Of a stretch of 64,000 nucleotides of DNA, positions 32,035-60,214 are shown one piece after another (the stretch's first letter is position 1; each line of letters opens with the position of its first letter). This DNA is from Eledone cirrhosa. Taxonomy: Eukaryota. A model generated the notes under the pieces. That model was not told where the DNA came from. It ran no database searches and worked only from the letters and a program-made list of their open reading frames with translations. The DNA lies in assembly GCA_964016885.1 (NCBI GenBank), contig OZ024742.1:94178001-94242000 (forward strand). The letters run 5' to 3'. The translations under genes were made by a program, and so were the position numbers.

Positions 32035-32141
32035 GTTTAAAATAGAGTGGAAAAGATGGGAAAGACCACTTACCGTACTTTTCGTAGAGGAAGGATGGTT
32101 TCTCCATCCCTTTTCACTTGATCGTCTGTTGAAGGGACCGT

Positions 32142-34235
32142 TCAATCGTCCCTTCGGCTGGTCGTCGGCTCTTCTATGAGTATGTCCGAATATACTCTCC
32201 GGTTAAGAGTCCCTCCTAGGTCTCTAAAATCACCAACTGCGTTGGGGAATTTCGTTTTAATGTTTGTGTATTGTTTCTGTGCTATTTTTAGCAGTCTTAT
32301 GTTAGTTGGCGTTTTGATTGGTGCTGGTATTATGTAGTCGTGCTGTGAAATGTCTGTGTGTTCAATTATGTAAGTCATTAGTTTCTTGTTGTGTGTATTT
32401 ATTGCCGTGCATTTGTTTGTCTGGGGGTGGGGTGTGGTTCTGCTATTTTCTTGTTGTTGCTGGGTGTGTGTGTTTTGTTGTTGTGTTTGCGATGTTGGTG
32501 CTTGTGGTGGTGGTGTTGAAGGTGTTGTTGTTGTTGGCGGTGGGGTTTTCGCCGGTGGTGATGGTGGTACTAGTGTGGGTGGTGATGGTGTTGGTGGTGT
32601 TGCTACTGTGAGTCTCTTTGCAGTAGCCTTTACCCTTTTTTCATTTCTTTCCTCCCCTTTCGAAGGCGACGATGCGCTGCTTCTGCGTTTGTGCCTTCTT
32701 ACGACGTTTTGCCATCCCTCTCCCACCTCACACTCCATGTCTGATTCTGTGAGGTCGGGGAGGGGTACCAGCTCCACTCTTTCACTTGTTGTTGTTGGTG
32801 ATGTTTGCAGCGGAGTCTCTGTTGCAGCTGCATTTGGTATTACTGTTGTTGTTGTTAATACTTCCACTGCTGCTGCTGTTCTTGATTTCGGTGGCGTGGG
32901 TATGGGTGCCACGGACCTATCGTTCCTGGTTGCCGCTTGTCCTGTTGCTGGTAGCCGTGGAGCCGGTTTCGGAAGGAAGGGGGTTTTCTCCTTTCTCAGG
33001 GTTTCTCGTTGCAGAAGGCCCTGAGGTGAGTCTTCGATCCACAACGAAAACATTTCGAGCGTTTGCCCTCAACACTTATGGGCAGTTGAGTGCCGTAATC
33101 GAAGTCTATCACATCCGGGATAGCTTTGATGCACTCCTGGTTGATTTTGATTAACATCTCAATGGAGGTGCCGACCCAATCTTCTCTTATTCTTTTCTGT
33201 ACTTGCAGTACAGTTGTTTTGTCCTCGATTCCTACGAGAACAGACGCGGCCAGCCAAGAAGGGGCCATCTCGGGGAGGGGAGGGGGGGGGAGGACGTGGG
33301 TCAGTTTGACCCTCTCAATTTTTTGCCCGCAGTAGGAGGGCACCAACACCATTTCCTCGCTCCTTAGGGTCACTAAGGATTGAGCCTTTGCCTCCTGGGG
33401 TGTGGCAAAAAGCACGTCTACGGTGGCATATTTCTTGCCTCGGGTGATGTGCGTTTTCCGCTGCCACACAGACCCTTAGGCTTTTTGTATTTGAGCCTCT
33501 GTGGCTCTTTCAACCCTACGGGATTTTGTGCTTACTGTACGGTTCGTGACCGTACAGTGCTGTTGGGTTTCGAAAAATTTTTCGGCTGCCTTGCAGATTG
33601 CTCGGTGTCCGGTTTTCGTCGCCATCTTCTTCGCTTCCTCTAATTCCTTATTTGTTATGAGGATGGTTTTCAGGTTCTTTGCGATACCTGCAAACGAGAT
33701 GGGTTTTTCTTTGCTGCTGTTGTTGTTGTTGTTGTTGTTGTCGTCAGAGCTGCTGTTACTTTTGTTGTTGCTGCAGGTACTACGACAACTGCCGCCACCG
33801 CTGTTGCTGTGGTTGTTGTTGTTGTTGTTGCTGCTGCTGCTGTTGTTGTTGCTGTTGCTGCTAATGCTGTTGTTGTTTATGCTGCTGCTGATGCTGTTGC
33901 GGCTGCTACTGTTGTTTTCCTTGTCACAGTTGCTGCTGCTGCTGTTATTACGGCTGCTACTGCTATTATTCATGACGTCAGACGAATGAAATGGGTTTTT
34001 GTATTTTCCGCACACCTCTTTCGTCGTTGTCGTCGTCCTCGTGGAGAAATCTTGCACGCTTTGCACGAGACTTTTCTATTCTGTCGTCACTTGCGAACGA
34101 GAATGCGGGGGGGGGGGGAGACACATTTAAAGAAGGGAGGGAGAGAGACAATCTTCTCTCTGCTGTAGTGATGATTGAGGAAGAAGAAGACGGAATGAGT
34201 GGGAGTAACCTATGAAAATTCTTTTTCGTAGCCAG
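32142..34235 (-). pseudogene. Tx1 ORF1 (gag-like, zinc knuckle), disrupted
   Basis: Pieces 33476..34066, 32996..33469 ('CFRCGSKTHLRAFC') and 32142..33053. The likely start is CTG at 34235 here but ATG at 28466 in the derivative. Confidence 0.75.
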
Positions 34236-34539: not shown

Positions 34540-37500
34540 AAGTCAGACATTCGAACACTACATTACAATGAAACTTATGCTTATTCATCTCTGGGGCCCT
34601 TTCTGCCTGTGTGTTTGTTTGTTTATGTGTGTTCGTATACAGCGTGGTGATAATGCCACACAAGGGCCAAGTGGAATGGCGGATCCACAGATGGCTATGT
34701 AAACATACATTCGCCAATCCTCGATAAGAGTGTTTAAATATCGAACATAAACAGTTCGAATAACGGTGAAATGGAGACTAGAACGTCATGTGACAGACTC
34801 TCACCCAACAGGTGCCCCCTGGCTCAGCAGCAGGAACCTGACTGTCAACCAAATACTGCTGATGTTGGAGGAAGGAGAAGAAGGAAAGGGGCCAGAACCA
34901 ACTGGACGAAAGAATTGAATAGAACTGTTATGCAATGCTACCTGAAAAGTAACCCCAAGGAGAGGGGCTACAGGAGACGGATGCATAACATCTGGAACGA
35001 GATTGGTTTATTTAAATTAGATGAACAAAAATTGGCCGGGCAGGCTCGGGTAATAAGAACTAATGGGTGGATAAGCGAGCTGGAACTGGAGGAACTGAGC
35101 AGAGAGAATGGCTTGGAGATGGCGGGTGTAGTATGCCAGACAAGCGAGCCGGTGGGAAATGAAGGTGAGGAGGTCCTGAGAACGGAGGAACCACCCGAAG
35201 CAGACAATGATCTGAGTACTGAGATAAATAATACCTGGAACAGAGATACGGCCACTGAGGAGATGAATGCTGACGGGCTAGGACAAGATTCGGTTGACAT
35301 CCTAAATTTAGTGGTAGATGAATTGAACAATGATAGTGGGAGACCTATGAACCTAAGATTTGTAGACAGGAAAAAGTTAAAAGAAACAACAGCTAAGGTA
35401 AACAAAGTCATCCCATACCTTGAGGCGAGGAGCCTTCACCAGTGCAACAATATCCTCAGAGCAACAGCAAATACGGTGAGGAAACTACTTGGTATAAAAG
35501 CGAGAGGAAACAACAGACAAGAAAGAGCAGAGCCGTGGTGGAAGAAGCGACTGAGTGGGCAAATCGGGGAAATGAGAAATGACATAGGAAAGCTTGAGTC
35601 ACTACTGAATGGGACACTAAAAAACATAGGCACTAAAAATAGACTGGAAATAAAATACAAAACTAGGAGTAAAAAGCTAAATATTATCATAGAGGAATTG
35701 AAGCAACGCATTGTAGCAAAGAGTGCAAAAATCAGGCGATACGAGAACAGAGTCAGTCAGTATAAACAGAACCGCATGTTCGACAACAACCAGAAGATGC
35801 TGTTTGGACAGCTTGAGGGCAAGGAAAGAGGCAACGACTTGATCCCTGGGGCGGAGCAAACTAAAACATTCTGGAGAGGAATATGGGAGCAGGATGTTAG
35901 ACACAATGCCCAGGCAGGGTGGATTGAGACAGTACAGAGGGAGATTGGTGAGCAGGCACAGCAACAGACTGATTTGAGTATCACAGTTGAAACTCTTAAG
36001 GGGCAAGCCAAAAAACTAACCAACTGGAAATCACCAGGCCCAGATGGTGTGCAGGGGTATTGGATTAAACATCTAACATCCCTCCACCCGAAGCTGACGG
36101 CCATGTTCAATGACTGCTTGGTGTCGGGTGAGGTGCCAGAGTGGTTGACAAAAGGTACCACAGTTCTGATAATGAAAGACCGAATCAAGGGTAATGATGC
36201 TACCAACTATAGACCTATCACATGTCTGCCCGTAATGTGGAAACTGTTGACGAGCATTGTGTCTGAGGAAATCTACCATCACCTCCACACAAACAACTTG
36301 TTACCGGACGAACAGAAAGGATGCCGAAAGAAGTCACGTGGTACAAAGGACCAGTTGCTTATTGATAAGATGGTAATGGGGAATTGCAGGAGGAGACACA
36401 CTGATCTTGCCATGGGATGGATAGACTACAGAAAGGCATTTGACATGGTGCCTCATTCCTGGATCACCAAAAGCCTGGAGATCTTCAGGGTGGCAGATAA
36501 CATCAGACAGTTGCTAGGCAGGAGTATGGGGTCCTGGGAGACAGAGTTGACATCAACTGGAGTATCCTTGGGAAGCGTGAAGATCAAGAGAGGTATCTTC
36601 CAGGGAGATAGCCTGTCCCCTCTGCTGTTTGTCCTTGCCCAGATGCCCTTGACCATTATGCTGCGAAAAGTGAGAGCAGGATACAAGTTGGGAAGGGGAG
36701 AGCTTACCATCAATCACCTCCTCTTCATGGACGATCTTAAGCTCTTCGGGAAAAGTGAGAAGGAGTTGGATGTGCTTGTTGACACTGTCCGTATTTTCAG
36801 CAGTGATATATGTATGCAGTTTGGTATTGGTAAATGTGGAGTCATTGTGATGAAGAGGGGTAGGTTGAGCAGAAGTAACGGGATCCAGATACCAACAGGT
36901 GAGATGATAAAGGAAATTGACTCTGAGGAAGGATACAAGTATTTGGGCGTTCTGGAGGCTGATGGCATAAAGAACAAAAAAAAGAAGGAATTGTTAAGAA
37001 CTGAATACATTCGGAGAGTAAGGAGCGTATTGAAGTCACATCTGAACAGCAGAAATGCCATAAGCGCAGTAAATTCCCGAGCTGTGTCTATTATTAGGTA
37101 CAGTGCGGGAATTCTGAGATGGAATGTTGCTGAACAGAAAGAAATGGATAGGAAGACTAGGAAGCTATTGACTATCTACAACATGTTCCACAAGAGGAGT
37201 GATGTCGATAGACTCTACCTAAGGAGATCTGAGGGTGGAAGAGGTCTTATCAGCATAGAGGACTGTGTTCAGATGGAGAAAAACAACCTATACAAATACG
37301 TGACCTATAGTAAGGAGTCAATGCTCAGAGCTGTACTGAAGGAGGGGACAGTAGGCCAGGGGATGTCCAGGGAGGAAATAACATCAAGGAGGAAGAGCAG
37401 CCTTAAGGGAAAACCCCTTCATAGTACCTTCTTTGAGAAAACTGAATTTAGAGATCCACAGACATGGAACTGGTTGAGAAGAGGAGACCTCAAAAAGGCT

Positions 37501-38237
37501 ACAGAAGGAATGCTAATGGCTGCGCAGGAGCAGGCCCTCAAAACGAAGTGGTTGAAGCACCATATCTACAAGGAGGAGGCCAGCCCACTGTGCAGGATCT
37601 GTGGAGAGAGAGAGGAGACTGTGGCTCACATTGTGTCCGAGTGTAAACACCTAGCCCAAACCCACTATAAGGGCTGGAGACACGATGTGATGGGCAGGGT
37701 GATCCACTGGCACCTGTGCAAAGTAAACAATCTACCACATTCTGAGAAATGGTATGAGCATAGGCCAGAGGCGGTGATGGAGAACAATCAGGTGAAGGTG
37801 CTGTGGAATTTTAGGATACAGACGGACAAAAAACTGGAACACAATAGACCTGACCTGGTGGTTGTGGACAAAGAAAAAAGATCGTGCCTGATTGTGGATG
37901 TGGCCTGCCCGTTCGACACGAGAGTGCAAGAGAAGGAGAGGGAGAAAATTAACCGATACCAGGACCTAAAGTGGGAGGTGAAAAGGATTTGGAACTGCCA
38001 TGAAGTCAAAGTGATCCCGATTGTCATAGGTGCACTGGGGACTATCTCCAAAAGTTTCCAGGGATGGTTAAAGAAAATCGGCCCCTTCACGCTTTTTGGA
38101 ACGCTTCAAAAGGCATGCTTGCTTGGAACAGCAAGAACCCTCCGATACGTCCTGAATATCTGAGGCTGCAGGTAGTGGCTTGATATTCAATCCAACGGAC
38201 TTTCCAGTTAACCAACATCAATGACTGAGATTCAAGG
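34540..38237 (+). mobile_element. Apparently full-length R4/Dong-clade LINE in (AAT)n
   Basis: Single long ORF with short UTRs, (AAT)n on both sides. Dong elements are known to target TAA repeats. Confidence 0.92.
34771..38163 (+). CDS. Intact 1130-aa retrotransposon protein: RT, CCHC knuckle, restriction-like endonuclease
   Basis: 'WKSPGPDG', 'NYRPITCLP', 'WIDYRKAFD', 'GIFQGDSLSPLLF', 'LFMDDLK', 'YKYLG', 'CRICGEREETVAHIVSEC', 'RPDLVVVD..VDVACP..EK..RY'. Confidence 0.95.
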   Translation: METRTSCDRLSPNRCPLAQQQEPDCQPNTADVGGRRRRKGARTNWTKELNRTVMQCYLKSNPKERGYRRRMHNIWNEIGLFKLDEQKLAGQARVIRTNGWISELELEELSRENGLEMAGVVCQTSEPVGNEGEEVLRTEEPPEADNDLSTEINNTWNRDTATEEMNADGLGQDSVDILNLVVDELNNDSGRPMNLRFVDRKKLKETTAKVNKVIPYLEARSLHQCNNILRATANTVRKLLGIKARGNNRQERAEPWWKKRLSGQIGEMRNDIGKLESLLNGTLKNIGTKNRLEIKYKTRSKKLNIIIEELKQRIVAKSAKIRRYENRVSQYKQNRMFDNNQKMLFGQLEGKERGNDLIPGAEQTKTFWRGIWEQDVRHNAQAGWIETVQREIGEQAQQQTDLSITVETLKGQAKKLTNWKSPGPDGVQGYWIKHLTSLHPKLTAMFNDCLVSGEVPEWLTKGTTVLIMKDRIKGNDATNYRPITCLPVMWKLLTSIVSEEIYHHLHTNNLLPDEQKGCRKKSRGTKDQLLIDKMVMGNCRRRHTDLAMGWIDYRKAFDMVPHSWITKSLEIFRVADNIRQLLGRSMGSWETELTSTGVSLGSVKIKRGIFQGDSLSPLLFVLAQMPLTIMLRKVRAGYKLGRGELTINHLLFMDDLKLFGKSEKELDVLVDTVRIFSSDICMQFGIGKCGVIVMKRGRLSRSNGIQIPTGEMIKEIDSEEGYKYLGVLEADGIKNKKKKELLRTEYIRRVRSVLKSHLNSRNAISAVNSRAVSIIRYSAGILRWNVAEQKEMDRKTRKLLTIYNMFHKRSDVDRLYLRRSEGGRGLISIEDCVQMEKNNLYKYVTYSKESMLRAVLKEGTVGQGMSREEITSRRKSSLKGKPLHSTFFEKTEFRDPQTWNWLRRGDLKKATEGMLMAAQEQALKTKWLKHHIYKEEASPLCRICGEREETVAHIVSECKHLAQTHYKGWRHDVMGRVIHWHLCKVNNLPHSEKWYEHRPEAVMENNQVKVLWNFRIQTDKKLEHNRPDLVVVDKEKRSCLIVDVACPFDTRVQEKEREKINRYQDLKWEVKRIWNCHEVKVIPIVIGALGTISKSFQGWLKKIGPFTLFGTLQKACLLGTARTLRYVLNI

Positions 38238-38273: not shown

Positions 38274-39950
38274 GTTTTCTTTATTAACCACAAAAGTTTA
38301 CATAAAGTAGACATTAAGGACAGTACAGGACAATACAGGACGGTACAAATGGGCATTTCTGCGTGTACAAAACAAAAACAGAGGATGTAACAAAAAAATA
38401 ACAATGAAAAATTACCCAATAAAGGGGAGATTTCGGAGGGACATTTGTGGAGAAAGCCTATTAAAAGGCCACAGTGACCCTGACCACCAGGGCTAGTGCC
38501 CTCTCCCAGTTTTCCACCTTCAATTTACAGGCACATACTCAAGTAGGCCCATTTACACAGGCCATTCTTGCATCTCTCACCCATCTTTCAACTAAATACT
38601 GGGAAGAGAGCACTTCCCTCGCTTTCCTGATTTTCCTTTTTAAATGAAACTTGAAAAAGTTAATCAGGGCATCCCCGAAGAGGTAAATGCTCGTCTTCAG
38701 CTCTTTCAAATGAGTCCACCATACTATCTCTTTCGCCATGGCAACCAGACAGATAACAATTGCCTGCCCTTCCCGGTTAAAGGAAGAGGGCGGGGCAATC
38801 CTCACGATGGACTCAGCTGACAGCTGGATCCGTCCTACACGTGACAGCAGGTGTTCGACATAAACCCACAAGCCAGCAATGCTCGCACACTGGACGAGTG
38901 CGTGCAGGATGGTTTGGTCGCCCTGCACGCATCTCGGACATGCCCGGCTGACGATACCTCCATACCTGTAGAGTTTATCCCAAACTGGCAAGGCTCCTCG
39001 GTAGCACTGCCAGGCCAGAGATTTCTGGAAGTTGTTCATAGGCCCCATTCTGAAGAGATTGGCTAGTTGATTTTCGTTGACGCCTAGAGTTTCACCAAGT
39101 ACGTCTTCGGTCTTCCCCTCCACTTATCCTCGATAGAACGCCAAGGTGGAATCTCCACCGATCACATTGCCCAATTGGGTCAAGGGCTGTGAGCGCCTGA
39201 AGGCTTTCCAGTCTCCAAGCGCTCCCTCTCGGTCTTTGCTTGACCCAGGACTGCAGCTCCGTCAAGGAAACGAGCTGGGGAAAGACGCATCTAGTAAACG
39301 GCGACCACACCTGATCACCGTCGAGGAAGAGGTTCAGATGTCATAGCCTGAGTGCATGTCTGTGCATCATCAGCCACGGCATGCCAAGCCCTTCACATAG
39401 CGGGTGTTGACAGCAGATGGACCGCCTGACCATCGGAGCGCATCCCTTCCACAAAAAGCGAAAGAGCAAACGCTCCAGCGCAATCAGGCGAAGCTTAGGA
39501 CAAGGCACGATGGTCAGGCGGTAGTAGATGACAGATATGATGTATGCATTAGCCACCTCCGCTCGACTTTTCAGGGATAGCTTCCTCTCCTCCCATTTCT
39601 GGGTGAGAGAAGCCACCCTGCTCGTCACCTCGTCCCAGTTTTTTTCTGTCTGGACGTCCGGACTGAACCAGACCCTTAGCAATTTAACCAGTCCGTTCCT
39701 CCAGCGTCCGACGATGCTGTTGTTCGGCATGGACCTGCCTCGTCAGGTGCCGAGCTGCAGGCCCACCGACTTTTCCTGGTTGATCATTGCTCCTGTCACC
39801 GCTTCATATTCTCTTAGTGTAGTGCCGATCACCTCGATGTGTTTGGCTTTTGACACCACTACGGTGACATCGTCCGCATATACTGACACGGATATTCCGC
39901 ATCCTAGTTCACACGGGACCCCCCTCAACGTCTCCAGTTTGTGCAGTAAT
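38274..39950 (-). mobile_element. 5'-truncated Tx1 copy
   Basis: Colinear with 28716-30403; 'VYADDVT' and 'CPRC..HALVQC'; (AAT)n on both sides. Confidence 0.92.
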
Positions 39951-39997
39951 AATAATAATAATAATAATGATGATAATAACAATAATGATAATAATAA

Positions 39998-41827
39998 TTA
40001 TTGATAAGATGGTAATGAGGAATTGCAAGAGGAGGCACACTGGTCTTGCCATGGGATGGATAGATTACAAAAAGGCATTCGATATGGTACCCCATTCTTG
40101 GATAACCAAAATCCTAGAGATCTTCAAGGTGGCAGATAACATCAGACAGTTGTTGAGCAAAAGTATGAAGTCCTGGGAAACAGAGTTAACATCAGCTGGA
40201 GAATCCTTGGGTGCGTGAAGATCAAGAGAGGTATCTTCCAGGGAGATAGTTTGTCCCCTCTGCTGTTTGTCCTTGCCCTAATACCCCTGACCGTTATATT
40301 GCGAAAACTGACAGCAGGATACAAGTTGGGAAAAGGAGAGCTTACCATCAACCACCTCCTCTTCATGGACGATATTAAACTGTTTGGGAAGAGTGAGAAG
40401 GAGTTGGATGTACTTGTTGACACTGTCCGTATTTTCAGCAATGATATATGTATGCAGTTTGGTATTGGTAAGTGTGGAGTCATTGTGATGAGGAGGGGTA
40501 GGTTGAGCAGAAGTAACGGAATCCAGGTACCAACAGGTGAGATGATAAAGGAAATTGACATTGAGGAGGGATACAAATATTTAGGTATTCTGGAGGCAGA
40601 TGACATCAAGAACAAAAAAATGAAGGAATTTATAAGATCTGAGTACATAAGGAGAGTAAGGGGTGTATTAAAATCACATCTAAATGCAGTGAATTCCCAA
40701 GATGTGTCTATTATTAGGTACAGGGAATTCTGAAATGGAATGTTCCTGAACAAAAAGAAATGTAGACTAGGAAGCTATTGACTATCTACAACATGTTCCA
40801 CAAGAGGAGGGATGTCGATCGACTCTACTTACAGAGATCTGAAGATGGAAGAGGTCTTATCAGCATAGAGGACTGTGTTCAGATGGAGAAAAACAACCTG
40901 CACAAATACATGACGGACAGAAGGGAGCCAATGCTCAAAATTGTAATGAAGGAGAAGACAATCGACCAGGAAGAAATAACAACAAGGAGGAAGAGCAAAA
41001 AAATCCCTTCATAGTATCTTCTTTAGGAAAACTGAATTTAGAGATCCACAGACATGGAACTGGATAAAAAGAGGAGACCTTAAAAAAGCTACAGAAGGAA
41101 TGCTAATGGCTGCGCACGAGCAAGCCCCCAGAATGAAGTGGGTGAAACACCATATGTACAAGGAGGAGGCTAGCTCACTGTGTAGGATCTGTGGAGAGAG
41201 AGAGGAAACCATGGCTCACATTGTATCCGAGTGTAAACACCTGGCCCAGACTCACTATAAAGATTGGAGACATGATGTGATGGGCAGGGTGATCCACTGG
41301 CACCTATTCAAAGTAAACAATTTACCACATTCTGAGAAGTGGTATGAGCATAAGCCAGAGTCGGTGATAGAAAACGATCAGGTGAAGGTGCTATGGGATT
41401 TTAGGATACAGACGGACAAGAAATTAGAACTCAATAATCCTGACCTGGTGGTTTTGGACAAGGAAAAAAGATTGTGTCTGATTGTAGATGTAGCCTTCCC
41501 ATTTGACACAAGAGTGCAAGAAAAGGTGAGGGAGAAAATTAACCGATACCAGGACTTAAAGTGGGAGTTAAAAAGGATTTGGAACTGCCATGAAATCAAG
41601 CTTGTCCCGATTGTCATAGGCGCACTAGGTACTATCTCAAAGAGTTTCCAAGGATGGTTAAAGAAGATTAGTCCAGCCCCGCTTTTTGGAACACTTCAAA
41701 AGGCATGCTTGCTGGGACCACAAGAACCCTCCGATACGTCCTGACTATCTTAGGCTGCAGGTAGCAGCTTGATATTCATTTCAACAAACTTTCCAGTTAA
41801 GTACCATCAATGACTGAGACTCAAAGA
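39998..41827 (+). mobile_element. 5'-truncated, frameshifted R4/Dong copy
   Basis: Colinear with ~36359-38237; (AAT)n on both sides. Confidence 0.92.
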
Positions 41828-42732: not shown

Positions 42733-43433
42733 TAAGCATAGTGTTGTAAGGCCAGTTTTCCCTGCTATAGCAGAGGCACCATACCAAGCTTCTTATAGGC
42801 ACCTACCAAGCTTCTCCATTTTGCTCTCTCTTCTGAATCTTCCTTACAAACCGCTAGCTTATTTCCTTCTCCATAATCATCAGCAATATCCTTCTTGGTT
42901 TTCCCTTCCTCCAATTCTTTCTCCATTCATTTCCATAATTCATCTCACCAAATCACACTCATCCTTCTTCAACACAGTTTACCTTGAAACCAATAGCCAC
43001 AATCTGTACAATTTCAGCTTTAAGGTAAAACTTATAATCTATTCTAAAATAGGCTTCAATGTGAACATTCATTAATGTTAATAACAGACATATTCCTTTA
43101 TGTGAAAGGTAAAGAACTCTTAAAATTTCACGTGATCAAAATTTAATTCATCAGGGGCAAGTAAGTTTGCATTACAGCTGGACGTATAATTAAAAATATT
43201 TAGAATAACTATGAACATTTAAAAACAAACAGACATTAGTAGTTTTCATTTGTGTTGCAAAGAGTTGTGTTTTGAGATTTTGCTTGAAATATTCCTGACA
43301 ATAATATTGTTTTTATTCCTGATGTGTGTGAGGGACTGCTTGAGTCACTGTTTTATGGGCATTATGTATCTGAGAGTAAAAGAATTATCCCATTCACAAA
43401 CAGGGATAACCTCTAAGTGCTACTGATAATAAT

Positions 43434-43619
43434 TGTTTCTACTTTAGGCACAAGGCCAGCAATTACCCAGTGCATTACTGGTACTTTATTTTATCGACCC
43501 CGTAAGGATGAAAGGCAAAGTTAACCTCGTCGGGATTTGAACTCAGATCGTAAAGGGACGTAACTATGCTGGAAAGCATGGCGTCCGACTCTCTACCGAT
43601 ACTGCCAATCCACCGCCCT
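43434..43619 (-). mobile_element. SINE-A with 18-bp TSD
   Basis: AGTGCTACTGATAATAAT at 43416-43433 and 43621-43638. Confidence 0.9.
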
Positions 43620-48279: not shown

Positions 48280-50468
48280 CTGCTATTCCTAGAACACCTA
48301 AGGAACACTATGAGGTTCCCTCTATTTAGCTGCTATTTCTACCATACCAATAGACCACCATGAGGTGCCCCCTTTTTAGCCTATGTAGCTGCTATTTCAA
48401 GAACATCTATGGACCACCATGAAGTTTCCCCTTATTTAGCTGCTATTTCGAGCATAACTATGGACCACTATAAAGTTCCCTCATTAGCTGCTATTTCTAG
48501 CACACCTATGGAACACCATAAGGTTCCTATTATTTTTGATGATGTGGCTGCTATTTCCAGCACACCTATGGCCTCTATAAGGTTTCCCCAGTTCTTGCTG
48601 ATGTAGCTGCTATTTCCCCTGTTTAGCTGTTGCAACTGCTATATCTTGCACACCTATAGCCCACCATGACTTTACCGATTTAGCTACTATGTCTAGCACA
48701 CATATAGACTACAATGTGGCTCCCTGTTTAGCTGCCATTTGTATGACATCTAAGGACCAGCATGAAGTTTGCACCTATTTAGCTGCTATATCTAGCACAC
48801 ATACGGACCACCCTGAGGTTTCCCTATTTAGCTGTTATTTTTAGTACACCTATGGATCACTGTGAGGTTCCCCCTATTTAGCTGCTATTTCTAACACACC
48901 TAAGGAGGAAAATGAGGTTCCTCTATTTAGCTGCTATTCCTCCAACACCTGTGAACGACCATGTCATTCTCCCTTTTTATCTGCTATTTCTAGCCCACAT
49001 ATGGATCAGCATGAGGTTTCTCTTGTTTAGCTGGTGTAGCTGCTATTTCTAGCACACCTATGTACCACCATGAGGTTCCCCTGTTTAACCGATGAAGATG
49101 CTATTTCTAGCAAACCTATGTAACACTATGGTGTTGTCCATTTTGAGCTGCTATTTCTCGTACATCTATGGATCACCATTAAAAACACCTTCCATTTAGC
49201 TGCTATTTCTAGTACGCCTATGGCCACCATGAGGTTTCCTTTATTTTGCTGCTATTTCCAGCATACAGAGGCTCCTCCTCCTTTTTCTCATGTAGCTACT
49301 ATGTCCAGCATACCTACGGACCACCATGAGCTTACCCCATTTAGCTGCTATTTCTAGCACACCTATGAAGCAAAATGATGTTCCCCCTATTCAGCTGCTA
49401 TATCTAGCAAACCTTTGGACAACCATGCATTTCCACCTGTTAAGGTGCTGTTTCTAGCACACCTATAGTCCACCATGAAGTCCCCCTGTTTAGCTGATTT
49501 AGCTGCTTTTGTAGCACACCTATGGACCACTATGAAGAAACCCATGTTTAACTGATGTATCTGCAATTTCTAGCACATCTACGGACCACCATGAAGTTTC
49601 CACCTATTTAACTGAAATATCTATCATGCCTGTGGACCTCTATGCGGTCCCCCCTATTTAGCTGCTATTCCTAGCACACCTATGAAGCACCATGTGGTTT
49701 TCCCTGTTTAGCTGTTATTTCTAAAATGCCTATTGAACATCATGAAGTTCCCCCATTTAGTTGATGTAGCTGCTAATTCTAGCCCACCTCTAGTTCTTCA
49801 TATTTAGCTGCTATGTAGAGCATACCTATGGTCCAAGATGATGTTCTGAACATTTAGATGCTGTTTCTAGCACACCTATAGATCTCCATGAGGCCCCCCC
49901 GCCTTTTCAGCTGCTTTTTCTACCAAACCTATGGACCACAGTAAGGTTTTCCTTATTTAGCTGCTATTCCCAGCAAACCTATGGACTGTCATGATATTCT
50001 CTCTATTTAGTTGCTATTTCAAGTATATTTATGGACCACCATGACGTGCTCCTATTTAGCTGCTATTTCTAGCACACCTATGGCCACCATGATATTCTCT
50101 ATATTTAGTTGCTATATCTAGCATATATATAGTCCACCAAGAGGCTCCCCCGTTTAGCTTCTATTTCTAGCACACGTATGGACCACCATGAAGCCCCTCC
50201 TGTTTAACCAATGAAGCTGCTATTTCTAGTACACCTATAGACCATCATGAGGTACCCCCCATTTAACTGAATAAGCTGCTATTTTTAGCACACCTATGAA
50301 CCACCATGAGGTTTCCCCCCATTTAGCTGTTATTTCGAGCATACCTATAGACCAATATAAGCTTCTCCCCATTTAGCTGTTATTTCTAGCACACCTATGA
50401 ACCAGCATGACTTTGCCCCCTATTTAGCTGCTATTTCTAGCACACCTATGGACCACCATAAAGCTCCT
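48280..50468. repeat. Diverged ~50/59-bp tandem array, roughly 40 copies
   Basis: Consensus ATTTAGCTGCTATTTCTAGCACACCTATGGACCACCATGAGGTTCCCCCT; some units carry an extra ~9 bp (GCTGATGTA). Confidence 0.95.
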
Positions 50469-52434
50469 TCATCCTTCAGGATGAAAAGCAAAGTTAACTT
50501 CAGGAGGATTTGAATTCAGATTGCAGAAAGTCAGAAAAAATATCAACATTTAATCTGACACTAACAATTCTATCAATTTGCTGCCATATTTCTAAGCTCT
50601 GCAGAATAAAGTTCTTATCCATTAGAGTTCTACCACCTGTAGATAAAAACATTATTACACTCAGTTTAACAGTGAAGGTTTCTATTAGTTTGATGTGGAT
50701 AAGGCACTTCATAATGATTGGAATGTTATGTAGATGTAAATACTGAAAAGTCTTTCATCTCTTAACTTTTAATACCAGTAATAAATTAGCAGAAAATATC
50801 TATAAACAAGCTTGTTATTTCAAATGTGAAAATTCTGAAAATCTGCAATCCACTAAAGTAAAGACTAAGTTTTAATGTGGTACAGTCCTAGTGCTGCTTT
50901 ATACTTTTCAAAAATCTCATGCTGATGTGGTTTCATGTGGTACAGAACATTAAGAGTTAATTGTTAACATCCTGTACTGATGTAGCAGCACATGTCTAAA
51001 AGCTGATTTGTTACTGTTTAACCCATGCTAGCGTGGAAGATAGACGTTAAACGAAGACGATGATGATGATGAAATCTTTATATTTTGTTGTGAAAATTGC
51101 AGTATATTAAAGTGAAGACTAATTTTTAATGTGATGCACTCATAGTGCTGTTTTGTACTTTTCAGAAATGTCTTGCTATTAGTTTTATGAAGTACAGGAT
51201 GTTAAGATTTAAGATGAGATTAAAAATTTGGAATATCATAATCCTATTTACAACAATCTGATCTTAGATATTTAGACAAGTAGAATTGTATCAGAACTCC
51301 TACAAAAGGATCTAAAACATTAATAACATAGAATGTTGGTGTCTATTTGATAGATGTAGACAGAGAATGGTTTAATGTTTAATAATGTCCCAGGTTCAAT
51401 CCCACTTCATGGTATCTTGGGCAGGTTTTATTCACCAAAGCTTTGGAAAAATCTAAGTGTTGTGAGTGAACTTTAATAGAGAGAAACTGTTTGGAAGTCT
51501 ATTAGACGGATTGTACTTGTAATTCAAAGGAGTAGCCTTGTAACTCACCGTGTCGCTGAATTTCACTGAGAATTACATTAAGGGTACACATGTCTTTAGG
51601 ACACATACTAACTTATAAGTCAATTTCATGTGCAGTTTGTTTGATTGATAAAAAAACTGAAACAGTCATCATGGAAATCGATGTAGGTCCATTCTGACTG
51701 ACATATTTGAAAAAGGCACTGGATGAAAAACTCTATTGGAAATATGAACAGTGATGTTGGATCAGAATATCTGGCAGGAATAAGTTTCTTTGATTCCATT
51801 GAAAAATCATGTGAGATAAGATGACATGATTGACGTAACAACTTCTCTTTATGTTACAGAAGTTAAGATAAAAAATACTCAAACAACATCGACTGGAGGG
51901 GTACTCAACAACAGTAAAACTACCCCCCGAAAAACAATAACAACTACAACATTAACCACAATCAAACAATAATAAACAATCACGGCTATAAAATCTATCA
52001 TGTAGTTAATCCAGATAACCAGTCCGGGGATAACTTCCTTCTTTCTTTCCTTCCTTCCACCACCCTCTAAGGCCTCTGAAAGTGATAAAAACTTGCACAC
52101 ACACACACACCACTATATATATATATTGTTTTTACATCTGATTTTCCATGATTGCAATATATATGCATGTATGTATATATTCATAGTTTGTGGTACAGGG
52201 ACTGGGAAGACCACAGATCGAAGAAGTCCTCAATACATGGTAAGATGCACATATATATATATGCATATATACATATATAGTTTCGTTGACAAATATATCA
52301 ATGTGCCCAGACACGCAGATATATTGCCCTTAGTATGACTGTGGTTTTAGCTCAATATAGGATAACTAGTACACTACAGAGCCGTTATAATTTTAGGAAT
52401 AACCAAAGAATGCTTAGAAATACATTGTTTTATT

Positions 52435-52481
52435 AGCTAACAGTGTTTCATCCATACCCTATGGCAGGAATCATCAGAGCC
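52435..52481 (-). ncRNA. Minimal type I hammerhead ribozyme motif, Penelope pLTR-like
   Basis: Minus strand GGCU-CUGAUGA-U-UCCUGCC(AUAG)GGUAUGGA-U-GAAAC-ACU-GUU-AGCU, immediately followed by AAUAAA. Confidence 0.65.
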
Positions 52482-53035
52482 TATAAACAAGTGTATATCA
52501 ATAGTTGCATGCTCCATGAAGCTGCCTCACCAGAACAAGGTTAAAGGACCAGCAGGGGGATCCCGAGGCCAGCGCTATATAGAAAAAGGCACAATACATG
52601 ACGCACATAATGTCATAAAAAATTACATCAAAAATTACATCAAAAATTTATCACATAAATGTTGCAATAGATGATAAGGAGGTTGGGAGAGGGTAGCAAG
52701 GAATGAGTGAATGTGTTACTAAGCATGATCAAAAACAATTTAAAAAAAACAAAACAAAAAAAAAAATCAAAGCAAAGCATAGATACATCAAAGCACAAGC
52801 AGTGCAAATACAGGGTGTACAGGCAGATTAAGAGAGCTTGCAAGCATGAGTCTGTGAGCAGACTATTCTTCTCACAGACTCATGCTTGCATATATATATA
52901 TATATATATGTGCATCTTACCATGTATTGAGGACTTCTTCAATTTGTGGTCTTCCCAGTCCCTGTACCACAAACTATGAATATATACATACACACATATA
53001 TGCATAAACTATGAATATATACATACATACATATA

Positions 53036-53113
<78 letters not shown>

Positions 53114-53477
53114 TATATGTGTGGATGTATATATTCATAGTTTGTGGTACAGGGACTGGGAAGTCCACAAATTGAATATATATATTTATATATATAAATG
53201 GAATAGAATGAAACGAAATTTCATTTCTCACTCTTCGTACAGCACTTACTTAAATGTAAGTATGTATGTATGTACACGTACATACATATATGTATACAGA
53301 CGTACAGTGGTATGTATATATATACATACATGCACACATATATATATGCACGTATCGGTTTACCGAACATTTATTATAATGCTCGGTTTGTTTGTTTATA
53401 AACTATCAAACAGCCCGAATTACGCCATACAGTGTTTAGGCAACCACGTCACCTTTTTGTTCAACACTGACACAAGA

Positions 53478-53520
53478 ACGATGTACTAGTTTCAAGCTTA
53501 TTACCTATCGTCAGCATCGT
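53478..53520 (-). ncRNA. Type I hammerhead ribozyme, copy A
   Basis: ACGAUG-CUGACGA-UAGGUAAUAAGCUU-GAAAC-UA-GUA-CAUCGU; perfect 6-bp stem I, one mismatch in stem II. Confidence 0.75.
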
Positions 53521-53647
53521 ATACCTTCCAGCCAGATGGTTGAACATCTGAAAGTATATACTTTCCTTATGCATATTAACGGTTGAGCAGCCTAATTTGC
53601 ATATCGAGTGATTATAATAAACAAACCGAGCATTATAATAAATGTTC

Positions 53648-53834
53648 AGGGCGGTGGATTGGCAGTATAGGTAGAGGGTCGGACGCCATGCTTTCCAGCA
53701 TAGTTCTGTCCCTTTACGACCTGAGTTCAAATCCCGCCGAGGTTGACTTTGCCTTTCATCCTTACGGGGTCGATAAAATAAAGTACCAGTAATGCACTGG
53801 GTAACTAGCTGGCCTTGTGCCTAAAGTAGAAACA
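53648..53834 (+). mobile_element. SINE-A inserted into the retrozyme-like unit, 16-bp TSD
   Basis: ATTATAATAAATGTTC at 53632-53647 and 53835-53850; empty sites at ~54283-54310 and, reversed, ~53355-53380. Confidence 0.92.
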
Positions 53835-54142
53835 ATTATAATAAATGTTCGGTAAACCGATACGTGCATATATATATATGTGTGCATGTATGTATATATA
53901 TACATACTACTGTACATCTGTATACATATATGTATGTACGTATACATACATACATACTTACACTTAAGTAAGTGCCGTACCAAGCGTGAGAAATGAAATT
54001 TCGTTTCATTCTATTCCATTTATCGTTTTCGGTGTGACCGGCCGACTGAACTCACTCGATATGCAAATTAGGCTGCTCAGCCGTTAATATGCATAACAAA
54101 AGTGTATACTTTCAGACGTTCAACCATCTTGCAGGTAGGTAT

Positions 54143-54185
54143 ACGATGCTGACGATAGCTAATAGGCTTCAAACTAGTACATCGT
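54143..54185 (+). ncRNA. Type I hammerhead ribozyme, copy B (core GAAA changed to CAAA, probably inactive)
   Basis: ACGAUG-CUGACGA-U-AGC(UAAUAG)GCU-U-CAAAC-UA-GUA-CAUCGU. Confidence 0.7.
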
Positions 54186-54401
54186 TCCTGTGTCAGTGTT
54201 GAACAAAAAGGTGACGTTGTTGCCTAAACATTGTACGGCGTAATTAGGGCTGTTTGTTAGTTTACAAACAAACAAATCGAGCTTTATAATAAATGTTCGG
54301 TAAACCGATAGTGCATATATATATGTGTGCATGTATGTATATATATACATACTACTGCACGTCTGTATACATATATGTATGTACGTATACATACATACAT
54401 A

Positions 54402-54469
<68 letters not shown>

Positions 54470-54471
<2 letters not shown>

Positions 54472-54722
54472 AGATATTAACAAATGGAAACTATATTTAT
54501 AAAACCATATTTATTTCATTATACATATTTCAAGGGCCACCAAAGCAATCTATGGTGCGCTTTCATGAGATAAAATATAATAGAGGTTAGTTTTATAAAT
54601 AAATAATGACATACCCTGAAAAAATGCAACCATTCTGGTTGGAATCTCCTGGTGGCCCTTGAAATATGTATAATGAAATAAATATGGTTTTATAAATATA
54701 GTTTCCATTTGTTAATATATTG
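54470..54722. mobile_element. 253-bp fold-back/MITE-like element with 73-bp inverted arms, copy 1
   Basis: 54470-54542 and 54650-54722 are reverse complements with one mismatch; TA flanks. Confidence 0.85.
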
Positions 54723-54810
54723 TATATTTACTCCAATAATTTGTTGAGTGCTTTATATCAATTATGAAAATATTTTGGTTGTTGTATCCCAACAAATTAA
54801 ATATAACCTC

Positions 54811-54883
<73 letters not shown>

Positions 54884-54885
<2 letters not shown>

Positions 54886-55498
54886 TGGCTGTGCCAACCC
54901 GTTTTCGAGTACGGCCACTACTTTATATCCATGTAGGAGAACCCGTACCGATGGGCTGAATGAGTGTGACTTTTTAGTCCAGCCAGCGACTTGAAAACTC
55001 TGGTACAAACACTACATTTGTGACAATTATTGACACATAGTGCTGGGCCCATGGTACCATGTGACGACAAATGCAGAGAGATCTCCAGATATGAAGCAAT
55101 GCTTGTGCCGTGAAGCTTTTATAGTGAGCAAAGGCACTGCACAAAGCCAGTCCCACTCACTTAACCAAGATGATATTTACCAAAAAGAAGAACAAGTCAA
55201 CATCATTGGATTCCATCAGGGTTGCAGGTGTTATATCAGAGTTTTCCTTCTCCTAGAATTCTGCCTTGATAAAGGCTAAGGGGTCATCTCTCCCGGTGAT
55301 TTTGGATGGCCATTGACGCTTAAGAGCTCCTTTGCCCTTTGACAGGTTTTGTTTTTAGTTCTGCAGGATGTCCAAAGTCACCCTCCTCACCAAGAAACCT
55401 TGGTGGGGTTGCCAGTTTAGTCACCAACGACCCGACCATGAGACAATTTGTACTGTTACCAGTACATGTTACCAGTAGCACCAACCGGTGACCTGACA
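54884..55498 (-). mobile_element. GC-richer insert between (TA)n runs, probable RTE-type 5'-UTR fragment
   Basis: Minus strand contains CTAGGAGAAGGAAAACTCTGA, which I recall from RTE 5' regions; no ORF support. Confidence 0.35.
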
Positions 55499-55572
55499 TA
55501 ATATGTATGTATGTATGTATATATATATATATATATATATATACATACATACATATATACATACATACATAC

Positions 55573-55660
<88 letters not shown>

Positions 55661-56303
55661 ATAATAATAAAATTGAAGACTAAAATCTAAAGAGGGCTCG
55701 ATAAGGAAAATATATATCAAATATATAAAAACCGTAGAGCAAATATTTATTAAAATAACAGATTAAAGTTTAAGCAAAGAATCGCTGCTTTCACCCTTAA
55801 CGGGATCTTCTGAAACTAACAAAGTCAATCTGTAAACGCAGAATTGGATATTTCAAAAAACGTTGCAACCGGAGGAAGACAGGAAGACGATACTTTGGTT
55901 CGCGGAAAGGTTCTCTGGCAAAGAACGGGAAAAAAACGAATATACGTCATTAATAGGAGTGGTGAAAAATAATTAGGCGCAAAGACAGAACCACGTTTAT
56001 GGTATAAAAGAGGTCGTAGACTAATGTTCTCTTAGGTGGTGCATAGAGACGTTCTCTGGCAATGAACGAAAAAACGAAGATAATAAGTCATATGTTGAAC
56101 GTGGAGAACAATAGCACGCAAAGACAAAACCACGTAAATGGTATAGCAGAAGTCGTAGACTAAAATTCTAACTAGGAGACCAAATGAATCTCCGCTACAG
56201 AGTTAAGAACAAAGTAAATAAATACAATACAGAAGTAATAGAAACAAATAAATACATACACGCAAACAGATACGTACATACACAAGCATACGCAAAACCT
56301 TAC

Positions 56304-56556
56304 CAATATATTAACAAATGGAAACTATATTTATAAAACCATATTTATTTCATTATACATATTTCAAGGGCCAGCAAGGCAATCTATGGTGCGCTTTCAT
56401 CAGATAAAATATAATAGAGGTTAGTTTTATAAATACATACTGACATACCCTGAAAAAATGCAACCATTCTGGTTGGAATCTCCTGGTGGCCCTTGAAATA
56501 TGTATAATGAAATAAATATGGTTTTATAAATATAGTTTCCATTTGTTAATATCTTG
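56304..56556. mobile_element. 253-bp fold-back/MITE-like element, copy 2, same orientation as copy 1
   Basis: Near-identical to 54470-54722. Confidence 0.85.
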
Positions 56557-56590
<34 letters not shown>

Positions 56591-56591
56591 T

Positions 56592-56895
56592 GGAGGCACA
56601 TGGCTTAGTGGTTAGAGCATTGGCCTTGCAATCGAAAGGTTGTGAGTTCAATTCTCAGATCGGGTGATGTGTTGTTTCCTTGAGCAAGACACTTTATTTC
56701 AGATTGATCCAGTTTACTCAGCTGTAGAAATGAGATGATAAGTGGTCGTGGAGGTGCCACGGCAAAATGCACCCAGCACTCACTGTAAATGAGGTGTGTG
56801 TTAGGAAGGGTATCCAGCTCTAGAAATCAAGCCAGAATCAGTTCCCGTCCCACCCTTGCAAGCATGGAAAAGCTGATGTAAAATGATGATGATGA
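56592..56895 (+). mobile_element. SINE-B full-length copy in (TA)n
   Basis: A box TGGCTTAGTGG, B box GAGTTCAATTC, CORE-like CCTTGAGCAAGACACTT, (TGA)n tail. Confidence 0.85.
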
Positions 56896-57369
56896 TATAT
56901 ATATATGTACATATATATATGTATATGTATATATGTATATATATATATATATATATTGGTACGGTTACGCGATGCGCATGAAAGACGACAGCTGTATAAA
57001 AAAGTGCAGGTATATAAATAAGTGCAGCTGTATAAAAAAGTGCGATAAAAATAGACGGTAGCCACGGAGAAAAACCTGGGACAACTTGCTAAATTCCGAC
57101 CTCACACACTTACACCTCTCCAAGACAATGTCACTGGACATACACAGTAATACACAGTAATACAGAAGTAATACAGAATGCCTAAGTACAATGCCTGGCG
57201 ATACACAGTAATACAGAAGTAATACAGAATGCCTAAGTACAAAACGAAACTTACAATCAGTAGGCACTTCTAACAAAAATACACCTCTGCCCCACTACCC
57301 CCACCCTATCCACACCACCTCTTCCAATGTAGAGTTATGTAAAAAAGTTATGTAAAAAATGAGGGCGAG

Positions 57370-57598
57370 TAGGTGTCACGACAAAAAAGCACACAGTCCA
57401 CGCTGTAATGTGGCCGTGTAGGTAACACGGTAAAAACCTCCCAGTCCACACTGTAAATGTGGTTGGTGTTAGGAAGGTCATCCAGCCATAGAAAACCCGC
57501 CAGACAGTCCTGAGCAAGACAACCAATCTTGCCTCAAGTGGGACAATTCCCGTCTAGACCCATACTAGCGTGGGAGATGGACGTTAAACGATGATGAC
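57370..57598 (+). mobile_element. SINE-B 3' portion
   Basis: Internal units, then GTTAGGAAGGTCATCCAGCC...CTAGCGTGGGAGATGGACGTTAAACGATGATGA. Confidence 0.7.
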
Positions 57599-57878
57599 AT
57601 ACATACATACATATATACATACATATACATATACACATATATATAGATATACGGAAAAAATGAAACAAAATTTCATTTCCCACTCTTAGTATGGCTGTTA
57701 CTTAAATATAAGTATGTATACGTACATACATATATGTATACATACGTACAGTAGTATGTATATATATATACATACATGCACACATATATATATGTACGTA
57801 TGGATTCACCAAACATTTATTATAATGCCACAGTGTCTAGCAACCACCGTTGCTCGTTTGTTCAACACTGACAATGGA

Positions 57879-57921
57879 ACGCTCTACTAGTTTCAAGCTT
57901 GTTAGCTATCGTCAGCAACGT
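57879..57921 (-). ncRNA. Type I hammerhead ribozyme, copy C
   Basis: ACGUUG-CUGACGA-U-AGC(UAACAA)GCU-U-GAAAC-UA-GUA-GAGCGU; G.G mismatch next to the cleavage site. Confidence 0.7.
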
Positions 57922-58313
57922 ATACCTTCCTGCCAGATTGTTGAACGTCCGAAAGTATATACTTTCGTTATGCATATTAACGGCTGAGTAGCCCAATTTG
58001 CGTATCGAGTGGGTTAATCGGCCGGGTGCACCGAAAACGATAAACGGAAAAAATGAAACGAAATTTCCTTTCCCACTCTTAGTACGGCTGTTACTTAAAT
58101 ATAAGTATGTATACGTACATACATATATGTATACAGATGTACAGTATGTATACAGTCTGTATACATATATGTATGTACGTATACATACTTATATTTAATT
58201 TCGGTGCACCTGGACGATTAACCCACTCGATATACAAATTGGGTTACTCAGCCGTTAATATGCATAAGGAAAGTATATGCTTTCGGACGTTCAACAATCT
58301 GGCAGGAAGGTAT

Positions 58314-58356
58314 ACGTTGCTGACGATTGCTAACAAGCTTGAAACTAGTACAGCGT
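58314..58356 (+). ncRNA. Type I hammerhead ribozyme, copy D
   Basis: ACGUUG-CUGACGA-UUGC(UAACAA)GCUU-GAAAC-UA-GUA-CAGCGU; stem I extends through GGA/UCC, CUGGCA/UGUCAG and GUUCAACA/UGUUGAAC. Confidence 0.75.
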
Positions 58357-58862
58357 TCCTTTGTCAGTGTTGAACAAACCAGCAACGGTGGTTGCTAGAC
58401 ACTGCGTATGTTTGTTTACAAACACACCGAGCATTATAATAAATGTATGGTTAATCCAAATGTACATATATATATGTGTGCATGTATGTATATATATATA
58501 TATACATACTACTGTACGTCTGTATACATATATGTATGTACGTATACATATATATATATATGTATATACATATATATATACATATATTGAAAATTGCAAA
58601 CTTGACTGTCACCACATATTATGAACCTGAAGAGTGCGAAAGCATGAAAGTACTAGTTCAATTAACACTTAGAATTTAATATTCTATCATACTATTTCAT
58701 TATAATACCATTATAAATTTTAAAGGATTGTAAATAAAACGGTAAATCAGACAAAGTTGGAATTCCTCTTATTAATATAATCTTCTATACACAATCATAC
58801 ACACCCGTGTATATTTATCTATCTATATATATATATATATATACATATATATACATATATAT

Positions 58863-58921
<59 letters not shown>

Positions 58922-58970
58922 TACATATATAGATATATATATACATATATATATATATATACACATATAT

Positions 58971-59014
<44 letters not shown>

Positions 59015-59017
<3 letters not shown>

Positions 59018-59130
59018 GGTGAGTGGTGAGAGAATTGGATTCACAATCTTGAGGTTGTGAGCTCGATTCCTGGACTGGGCGATGCGTTGATATCTTTGAG
59101 CAAGACACTTTATTTCACGTTGCTCCTTCT
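59015..59130 (+). mobile_element. SINE-B-like 5' fragment
   Basis: tRNA-like head and TTGAGCAAGACACTTTATTTCAC. Confidence 0.6.
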
Positions 59131-59242
59131 ACCTGGACTTGCGACCAATAGATAGTATTAGCAACTGGAATGTCCGACGGAAACATTGTTTTCTCAGTCC
59201 GATTTGTCGAAAAGTCGATCGATCCTTTTATATATATATATA

Positions 59243-59316
59243 TAATTTTAGGAATAATGAAAGAGTGCTTAGAAATACATTGATTTATTAGCTAACAGTG
59301 TTTCATCCATACCCTA
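59243..59316 (-). repeat. Truncated second copy of the 52387-52461 hammerhead/AATAAA segment
   Basis: ATAATTTTAGGAATAA..TGCTTAGAAATACATTG.TTTATTAGCTAACAGTGTTTCATCCATACCCTAT between TA runs. Confidence 0.8.
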
Positions 59317-59355
59317 TATATATACATATTGACTGTGTAAGTACTCAACAATAAT

Positions 59356-59570
59356 TGTTTCTTATATAGGCACAAGGCCAGCAATTTTGAGGGAGGGGAA
59401 AGTCAATATAATCGACCCCAGTGTGTGACTGGTACTTTATTTAATCGACCCTGTAAGGATAAAAGGCAAAGTTAACCTTGGCGGGATTTGAACTCAGATC
59501 ATAAAGGGCAATAACTCTATGCTGCAAAGCATGGTGTCCGACCCTCTATCGATACTGCCAATCTACCGCT
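59356..59570 (-). mobile_element. SINE-A (longer variant) with 17-bp TSD
   Basis: AAGTACTCAACAATAAT at 59339-59355 and 59574-59590. Confidence 0.9.
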
Positions 59571-60214
59571 TTAAAGTACTCAACAATAATAAAACAATAT
59601 ACCTATAAATTCTTCATCATCATTATCACCATCAGTAGCAATGATACTAACAATAATCACAGTTTAAAACCAACATTGTCATCATCATCATCGTCACCAT
59701 CAACAATAATAATAACAACAATCCCAGCTGAAAAGATCCATCCTTCCCACTCCACCCAGAAACTGAAAGAGTGAAAAAAATATATAATGCAAGGAAAAGA
59801 AACAGCGGAAACAAATCAAGGCAATCAAAGATAGCGAAGAACTTTAAAATAAACAAATAAATAAATAAATAAATAAATTTAAAATAAAAAATTAAAAAAA
59901 TAAGGAAAATATATTTTTTTAATAGTAAAATAAATTACAACAATAGCAGCAGCAGCAGCGACAAAATAAATGAAATAAACAGGTTTTGAAGACAATTTGT
60001 GGAAGCAATTTAGATTATTTAAAAGAATGATGATTGTAGGTGGGGTTGAATAGGTTGGGTGTGTGATGTGGGGGTGGGTGGGTGGGGTTAATCATGTGTA
60101 TATTATTATTATTATTATTGTTATTATCACCACATCTACTGTTTATTTCAATACAACAAGCTGTTTAATTCTCTCGGATTGCAGCAAAACTGAGAGAATT
60201 GAACTGAAATGGAA

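Follow-up and report, generated by a model that had tools for sequence, protein, structure and literature searches.

A non-coding unit in head-to-head arms at two loci

We analyzed a 64-kb stretch of E. cirrhosa DNA, the whole of which is referred to here as the window. It has 0 N. As animal DNA it is rich in AT and dense in microsatellites, and it contains SINEs and fragments of LINEs. Minisatellites lie at 23786–24946 (period 48, 24 copies, 92% matches) and 48636–50456 (period ∼50, 36 copies, 64% matches). Self-comparison of the window, together with alignment, defined a non-coding unit of ∼448 nt (∼450 nt) at two loci, L1 (53194–54405) and L2 (57646–58550). Self-comparison of the 64-kb window gave no further copies outside these loci, and our sample is hence two loci and four arms. 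Unit positions are numbered from u1 (54180), the first base past the predicted ribozyme cut. In L1 the unit repeats with a period of ∼448 nt; in the minus arm of L2 the period is 393 nt.

At each locus, a minus-strand arm is followed by a plus-strand arm of the one unit, and the two are joined head-to-head. An earlier, sequence-only reading had proposed this strand order, with inversions near 53610 and 58150. Our alignments bear it out and place the inversion points at 53611/53612 (L1) and 58150/58151 (L2). The minus arm of L1 (53194–53611, 418 nt) runs from u321 via the cut site to u292; it corresponds to one unit minus ∼28 nt at the 5' side, and its tail end adjoins (TA)n. The plus arm (53612 to 54405) comprises 591 nt, not counting a SINE and one of the two copies of the duplicated target. 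It begins with a 5'-truncated, tailed partial copy resembling a pLTR (53612–54023, ∼u84 to u292) and continues into a downstream copy (54024–54405) that starts with u293 at the unit junction and terminates in a tail-less 3' end at (TA)n. The right flank, 54406–54469, is (TA)n. On its left outer side, L1 has a tail (53194–53256, minus strand) of ∼63 nt, a length taken from the internal copy at 53961–54023; the right outer end lacks it.

The SINE, which lies within the partial copy (53648–53834, plus strand) and is absent from the earlier reading, is flanked by a 16-bp target duplication (53632–53647 and 53835–53850). It matches a copy near 43426–43619 at 185 of 194 positions and is multi-copy in the window. 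It is a later insertion into the L1 plus arm.

In L2, the minus arm spans 57646–58150 and ends on the left at 57651 if an exact match is required, or at 57646 if one mismatch is allowed. A tailed partial copy (58150–58040, ∼u180 to u292) leads into a full copy (58039–57646) that starts from u293, is 393 nt long and tailed, and has an internal deletion. The plus arm (58151 to 58550) starts with 48 nt that mirror the beginning of the minus arm, jumps 59 nt, and proceeds with the main copy (58199–58550), which starts at ∼u298 and has a tail-less end at (TA)n. The sequence around the inversion point forms a fold-back hairpin (58093–58198; 47/47 aligned bases identical, one gap), and the 59-nt jump past it omits almost exactly the tail. 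The earlier reading had the arms run past the unit boundary into the next unit. This is so for the L1 plus arm and the L2 minus arm, which read through, and for the L2 plus arm by way of the 59-nt jump, but the L1 minus arm stops at the boundary.

Hairpins of this kind raise the possibility that the inversion arose by self-priming on one template, possibly antisense, rather than from both target strands. Self-priming from palindromes at inverted junctions has been proposed for another PLE (Penelope-like element) system (PMC3846280). At L2, the center is a 47-nt fold-back and both arms are truncated within ∼6 nt of one unit position, as such snap-back would predict. Yet L1 has no fold-back, and its arms start ∼210 nt apart on the unit. 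The perfect 43-nt identity at L2 has a probability of ∼0.07 given 6% divergence and so is weak evidence, and snap-back alone leaves two different fixed outer-end sites (see below) unexplained. We consider it rather unlikely as the cause of the inversions.

Hammerhead motifs in all four arms

In 4/4 arms, a descriptor search and inspection identified a type I hammerhead motif, putatively a ribozyme, whose helix III is palindromic. The motif is built from a 6-bp helix I, the core, a U.U opposition, a 3-bp helix II, a palindromic hexamer forming helix III, and a GUA cleavage triplet. The palindromic helix III could form a 6-bp dimer duplex. Each of the four copies carries one defect. In the minus arm of L1 (53478–53520, minus strand; predicted cut after 53484), the core is intact and helix II has one mismatch. 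The motif of the plus arm (54143–54185, plus strand; predicted cut after 54179) has lost a core G through a single substitution in the GAAA box and is probably inactive. In L2, both cores are intact, with one helix I mismatch adjoining the cut site in the minus arm (57879–57921, minus strand) and one helix II mismatch in the plus arm (58314–58356, plus strand).

Across the four motifs, 48 of 52 structure cells are paired. Helix I shows one two-sided change between the two subfamilies (see below), from A-U to U-G, although covariation is not significant with four sequences (93/500 shuffles reach it). Predicted minimum-energy folds of the four short motifs did not give the active fold. Searches of the window against Rfam at gathering score gave 0 matches, and so no hammerhead; by E-value, there was no hammerhead among the 150 matches listed of 212 in 51500–60000. 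The listed matches were mostly to miRNA models on TA-rich hairpins, and we rejected them as composition effects. The hammerhead pattern had 0 matches in a prokaryotic genome collection. In the window, the descriptor gave nine hits, of which eight lie within 52.1–59.4 kb. Local shuffles (n = 30) averaged 0.07 hits, a control that is lenient because the descriptor was loosened after the first hits had been seen.

The motif is of a kind met in PLEs. Of the 26 Hydra-clade rows in File S2 of PMC8557442, 14 have a U.U at the helix II base, by our own count, which took in the Hydra rows only. Minimal PLE hammerheads usually keep G10.1-C11.1, and an unstable palindromic helix III implies dimer cleavage (PMC4209133).

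Neighboring elements

The 7.3 kb from 52100 to 59400 are a nest of TA-inserted hammerhead elements, with 8/9 descriptor hits and four unrelated families. Two element copies at 54470–54730 and 56304–56564 are 253/261 identical, have inverted ends of ∼75 bp and the same inner junction, and carry a minus-strand hammerhead (cores at 54569 and 56403). These 261-bp elements look like a head-to-head PLE product copied whole, in the manner of a MITE. Another element (52159–53001) has 115-bp inverted arms, a minus-strand hammerhead at 52477 and a hairpin at 52839–52890. A 5'-truncated 77-bp copy of it lies in TA at 59241–59317, and a third partial arm (53113–53176) abuts L1. Directly right of L2 is a TA-flanked element (58587–58812) with a compact, intact hammerhead at 58627 (plus strand) whose helix III is palindromic.

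Between the two loci, a TA-flanked element at 55655–56300 has a degenerate hammerhead-like motif near 55800 (minus strand) and a 141-bp internal duplication. A 16-nt motif of this element, unique in the window, also occurs by eye (one gap) in the non-coding 3' end of Hydra-1_Obim, which hints weakly at a Hydra relative. Also TA-flanked is a segment at 54921–55118 (minus strand) with a weak C2H2 zinc-finger match (E 0.0016).

Divergence of the arms and origin of each locus

The two arms are 93.5% identical in L1 (23 differences at 354 aligned sites) and 94.2% identical in L2 (19 differences at 326 aligned sites). Identity between loci is 83–85%, defining two subfamilies. Of the four-way informative columns, 23 pair the arms by locus and one conflicts, which indicates a single event at each locus, with one type of template. 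The tandem junction, u292/u293, is identical in both subfamilies. As these are only 83–85% identical, the junction must have been templated rather than formed anew. At the octopus rate quoted in PMC13282606, the arms would have separated 8–9 million years ago and the subfamilies 23–26 million years ago, presuming that the arms were identical at insertion. No A-to-G editing bias was seen among 30 private substitutions (4/30). The changes at the loci since insertion are point mutation, a deletion and the SINE insertion.

These comparisons bear on whether the architecture was created after insertion, either by rearrangement of a tandem array or by two independent insertions that met head-to-head in a TA hot spot. 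Both loci do sit in a nest of TA-inserted elements (52.1–59.4 kb). But neither inversion point has a TA tract, the 23 diagnostic columns pair arms by locus, and an inversion that rearranged an array would have had to break, at both loci, where the tail ends. We regard a secondary origin of either type as improbable.

Assembly error is a further concern, in that inverted repeats between microsatellites assemble poorly and the center of L2 is a near-perfect hairpin. Fold-back reads give near-identical arms, however, and cannot put a SINE into one of them. Here the arms differ at 23/354 and 19/326 sites and have arm-specific indels, the SINE with its target duplication is confined to one arm, and the pattern is seen twice. 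An artefact is therefore extremely improbable.

Outer ends are fixed and inner ends vary

We next compared the ends of the arms. Outer ends were placed by comparison with the read-through copy of their own locus, and the L2 offsets were taken from the printed sequences, not from the automatic extension of the script. The left outer ends of L1 and L2 lie at one shared unit position, within 4 nt. The right outer ends fall short of it, by 63 nt in L1 and 66 nt in L2, and likewise agree to within 4 nt. Only the left ends carry a tail, of 63 nt in L1 and 66 nt in L2; the right ends have none. Were the ends random, such coincidence would have a chance of ∼4e-4, a post hoc value. Inner ends are variable (n = 5: u321, u84, ∼u180, u182 and u298). 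The loci had been described as circularly permuted. With outer ends fixed at two unit positions and only the inner ends varying, this is an overstatement; they are 5'-truncated partial tandems rather than free circular permutations.

That both outer ends sit in TA repeats was confirmed: 4/4 are within 6 nt of (TA)≥4, versus 4.2% of window positions. Since the unit itself is TA-rich where the right ends fall, independent evidence comes from the two left ends only (p ∼0.002). Within (TA)n, a target duplication is unreadable at L1 and L2.

Several of these features would also suit a DNA element, be it a non-autonomous element of Helitron-like type or a MITE or fold-back element that duplicates a TA target: the arms are inverted, TA lies at both ends, the termini are fixed, and there are hairpins near the 3' end. 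The ends are asymmetric by 63–66 nt, however, and the inner junction is unlike between loci, which excludes a MITE. The arms also contain partial tandems and, in each case, a PLE-type hammerhead. Overall, we judge a DNA element very improbable. Fixed termini had been named as an observation that would speak against PLE retrotransposition. That expectation was mis-specified, for the termini are fixed, as PLE 3' ends should be.

The ends and arm lengths also inform the choice of template. The main proposal of the sequence-only reading, the retrozyme model, was that a hammerhead-cut monomer is religated into a circle, along which RT rolls beyond one full turn; circular templates of this sort have been proposed (PMC4209133, PMC7229834). 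All four arms pass the cut site, two of them are longer than one unit, and the unit is within the retrozyme size range of 51–972 nt given in bioRxiv 10.64898/2026.07.22.740005. Yet the longest arm is at most ∼1.3 units and no arm attains two. No strand has a tandem hammerhead pair, and the palindromic helix III suggests that cleavage depends on dimers. Moreover, uncleaved RNA is the main template in the one PLE tested (PMC11167929). The predicted cleavage site coincides with 0/4 outer and 0/5 inner ends. With 0/9 ends at the cut site and no arm above ∼1.3 units, a linear read-through RNA is enough. Circle and linear read-through RNA are inseparable by sequence alone, and we think it doubtful that a circle was the template.

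Coding potential of the window

We scanned 287 frames of at least 50 aa against Pfam. Of 256 frames in the first 40 kb, 53 were of low complexity and were left out, as were some from the last 24 kb. In agreement with the earlier reading, no Penelope ORF was found in the window: there was no GIY-YIG or PLE-type domain among these frames. One 50-codon frame is open in all four copies of the unit, and at first it looked like the C-terminus of a PLE endonuclease. As a coding remnant it was rejected, with 0 matches in Pfam and 0 among 1.84 billion representative proteins. Having no ORF, the element is not an autonomous PLE.

RT fragments occur near 18–20 kb, 29–32 kb, 34.7–41.7 kb and 46.7–46.9 kb. 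We did not accept them as a PLE partner, as their motifs and neighboring domains are LINE-like; on this basis they look like ordinary LINEs. An uninterrupted frame of 1141 codons (34738–38160, plus strand) has an RT domain and a zinc finger, with best homologues 48–66% identical, and is presumably an intact R4/Dong-type LINE. LINE-like elements at 29611–34075 and 38542–40001 (both minus strand) have endonuclease and RT fragments in several frames, and related end pieces lie at 27.8–29.4 kb.

Comparison with known elements

Partial tandem copies and an inverted 5' segment had been put forward as hallmarks of PLE retrotransposition, and they are indeed described as such in PMC8557442, PMC3846280 and PMC11167929. 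PLE insertions are typified by a partial tandem, an inverted 5'-truncated copy and a one-sided tail of 30–40 nt (PMC8557442; PMC3846280). The pattern of the two loci matches: a partial tandem forms a pseudo-LTR in the L1 plus arm and the L2 minus arm, an inverted 5'-truncated copy is joined at the 5' end in 2/2 loci, the optional tail is one-sided, and hammerhead and (TA)n target are present. The tail of the unit, at 63–66 nt, is longer than the reported 30–40 nt.

Among known PLEs, the Hydra clade (for example Hydra-1_Obim of Octopus bimaculoides) shares with the unit a (TA)n target, a hammerhead near the 3' end and, in many members, a U.U at the helix II base; Penelope-13_HM has an inverted 5'-truncated copy (PMC8557442). 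Almost all Hydra families insert into (TA)n (PMC8557442). Unlike these elements, the unit has no ORF and a loopless helix III, and its hammerhead lies ∼226–290 nt from the 3' ends, whereas that of Hydra-1_Obim is closer (position 2403 of 2507; PMC8557442). Octopus Naiad PLEs also have the (TA)n target, tandem and inverted structures and a tail, but lack canonical hammerheads (PMC8557442). As (TA)n insertion is common to Hydra and Naiad, it is not diagnostic for the Hydra clade. By eye, we saw no match of the unit to the hammerhead and 3' end of Hydra-1_Obim or to the 3' ends of Naiad_Obim and Naiad_Ovul as given in the excerpts of PMC8557442, and four short unit motifs had only coding-region or unrelated matches in the available part of its supplement.

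Two other PLE systems resemble the loci in their ends and joints. Poseidon PAc of Anolis carolinensis has an AT-rich target and, downstream of its hammerhead, an optional tail bounded by two fixed RT start sites; its RT reads past the cut site. This element is autonomous and its tail measures 30–40 nt, as against 63–66 nt in the non-coding unit (PMC11167929). In Adineta vaga, Penelope insertions have head-to-head inverted pLTRs, a tail at one end and palindromes at the inversion, and pLTR sequence suffices for mobilization in trans; the pLTRs flank ORFs or captured genes, with target duplications of 8–10 bp, which at L1 and L2 are unreadable (PMC3846280).

The unit further resembles animal non-LTR retrozymes, which are short and non-coding with a type I hammerhead, and for which an origin in PLE termini and movement via PLE enzymes have been proposed (PMC7229834; bioRxiv 10.64898/2026.07.22.740005). 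Retrozymes have consecutive hammerhead units and expressed circles, whereas L1 and L2 have at most ∼1.3 units per arm, arranged head-to-head. The label retrozyme-like thus fits a 393–448-nt non-coding unit with a type I hammerhead, but not under the strict definition of two or more units in succession, each bearing a complete hammerhead (the same preprint), since each arm has one hammerhead and the two lie on opposite strands. That animal retrozymes are non-autonomous PLE derivatives has already been argued in that preprint. The architecture, then, is already known for PLEs, and what we see is mostly a small, seemingly unannotated family that behaves as expected. We found no account of this unit family in the excerpts of PMC8557442 or in the literature searched; Repbase, Dfam or the Zenodo library of PMC13282606 may hold it.

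A model for insertion of a probable non-autonomous PLE

The unit is very probably a non-autonomous PLE. The best overall explanation of the data, mechanism included, is probably that it is a PLE derivative moved by PLE machinery, and membership in the TA-targeting Hydra clade is somewhat favored. We propose that the final ∼450 nt of a PLE, namely its 3' non-coding region, the hammerhead, the terminus and the tail, make up the unit and propagate as a partial tandem. That such an element is served by a PLE in trans had been suggested earlier, and this part of the proposal is retained: the element is non-coding, its RNA would read across the junction, and PLE hallmarks are present. The circular template that accompanied it is not needed.

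In this model, a source locus would be transcribed across the unit junction, which both subfamilies share. The RT/GIY-YIG protein of an autonomous PLE elsewhere may then nick both (TA)n strands. One target end would prime at the start site of the tail and the other at the tail-less site 63–66 nt upstream, giving the two fixed ends observed. Both cDNAs would pass the uncut or religated hammerhead site, as 4/4 arms do, end at variable points, and presumably be joined head-to-head to give the junctions seen at the loci. At L2, joining may have involved a short snap-back hairpin of the first cDNA, leaving a mirrored truncation and the 59-nt jump; alternatively, the template may have lacked the tail or a deletion may have followed later.

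In the left arms, the top strand has the cDNA sense from the tail end; in the right arms, the bottom strand has the cDNA sense from the tail-less end. The simplest reading of this strand sense is priming from both target strands at two start sites. There is precedent in vitro: both strands of the target are nicked and extended by the Anolis PLE, whose two internal cDNA start sites delimit the tail and whose main template is uncleaved RNA (PMC11167929). Whether two-sided priming is what causes the inversion we consider evenly balanced.

The asymmetry of the ends, seen in 2/2 loci, leads to a sharp prediction. There may be a miniature Hydra-type PLE family in which every inverted insertion is tailed on one side and tail-less on the other, its products perhaps being remobilized whole in MITE-like fashion, as is hinted by the 261-bp hammerhead elements beginning at 54470 and 56304; we offer this tentatively, as a possibility rather than an expectation. 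If true, the inverted insertions of such a family would document that a dimeric PLE enzyme primes from both sides. Short, fully assembled copies such as these, in which breakpoints can be counted in large numbers, offer an approach to how inverted insertions of PLEs come about, whether by two-sided priming, self-priming or a circular template. These data also suggest that some MITEs and unclassified repeats of microsatellite-rich invertebrate genomes are PLE derivatives.
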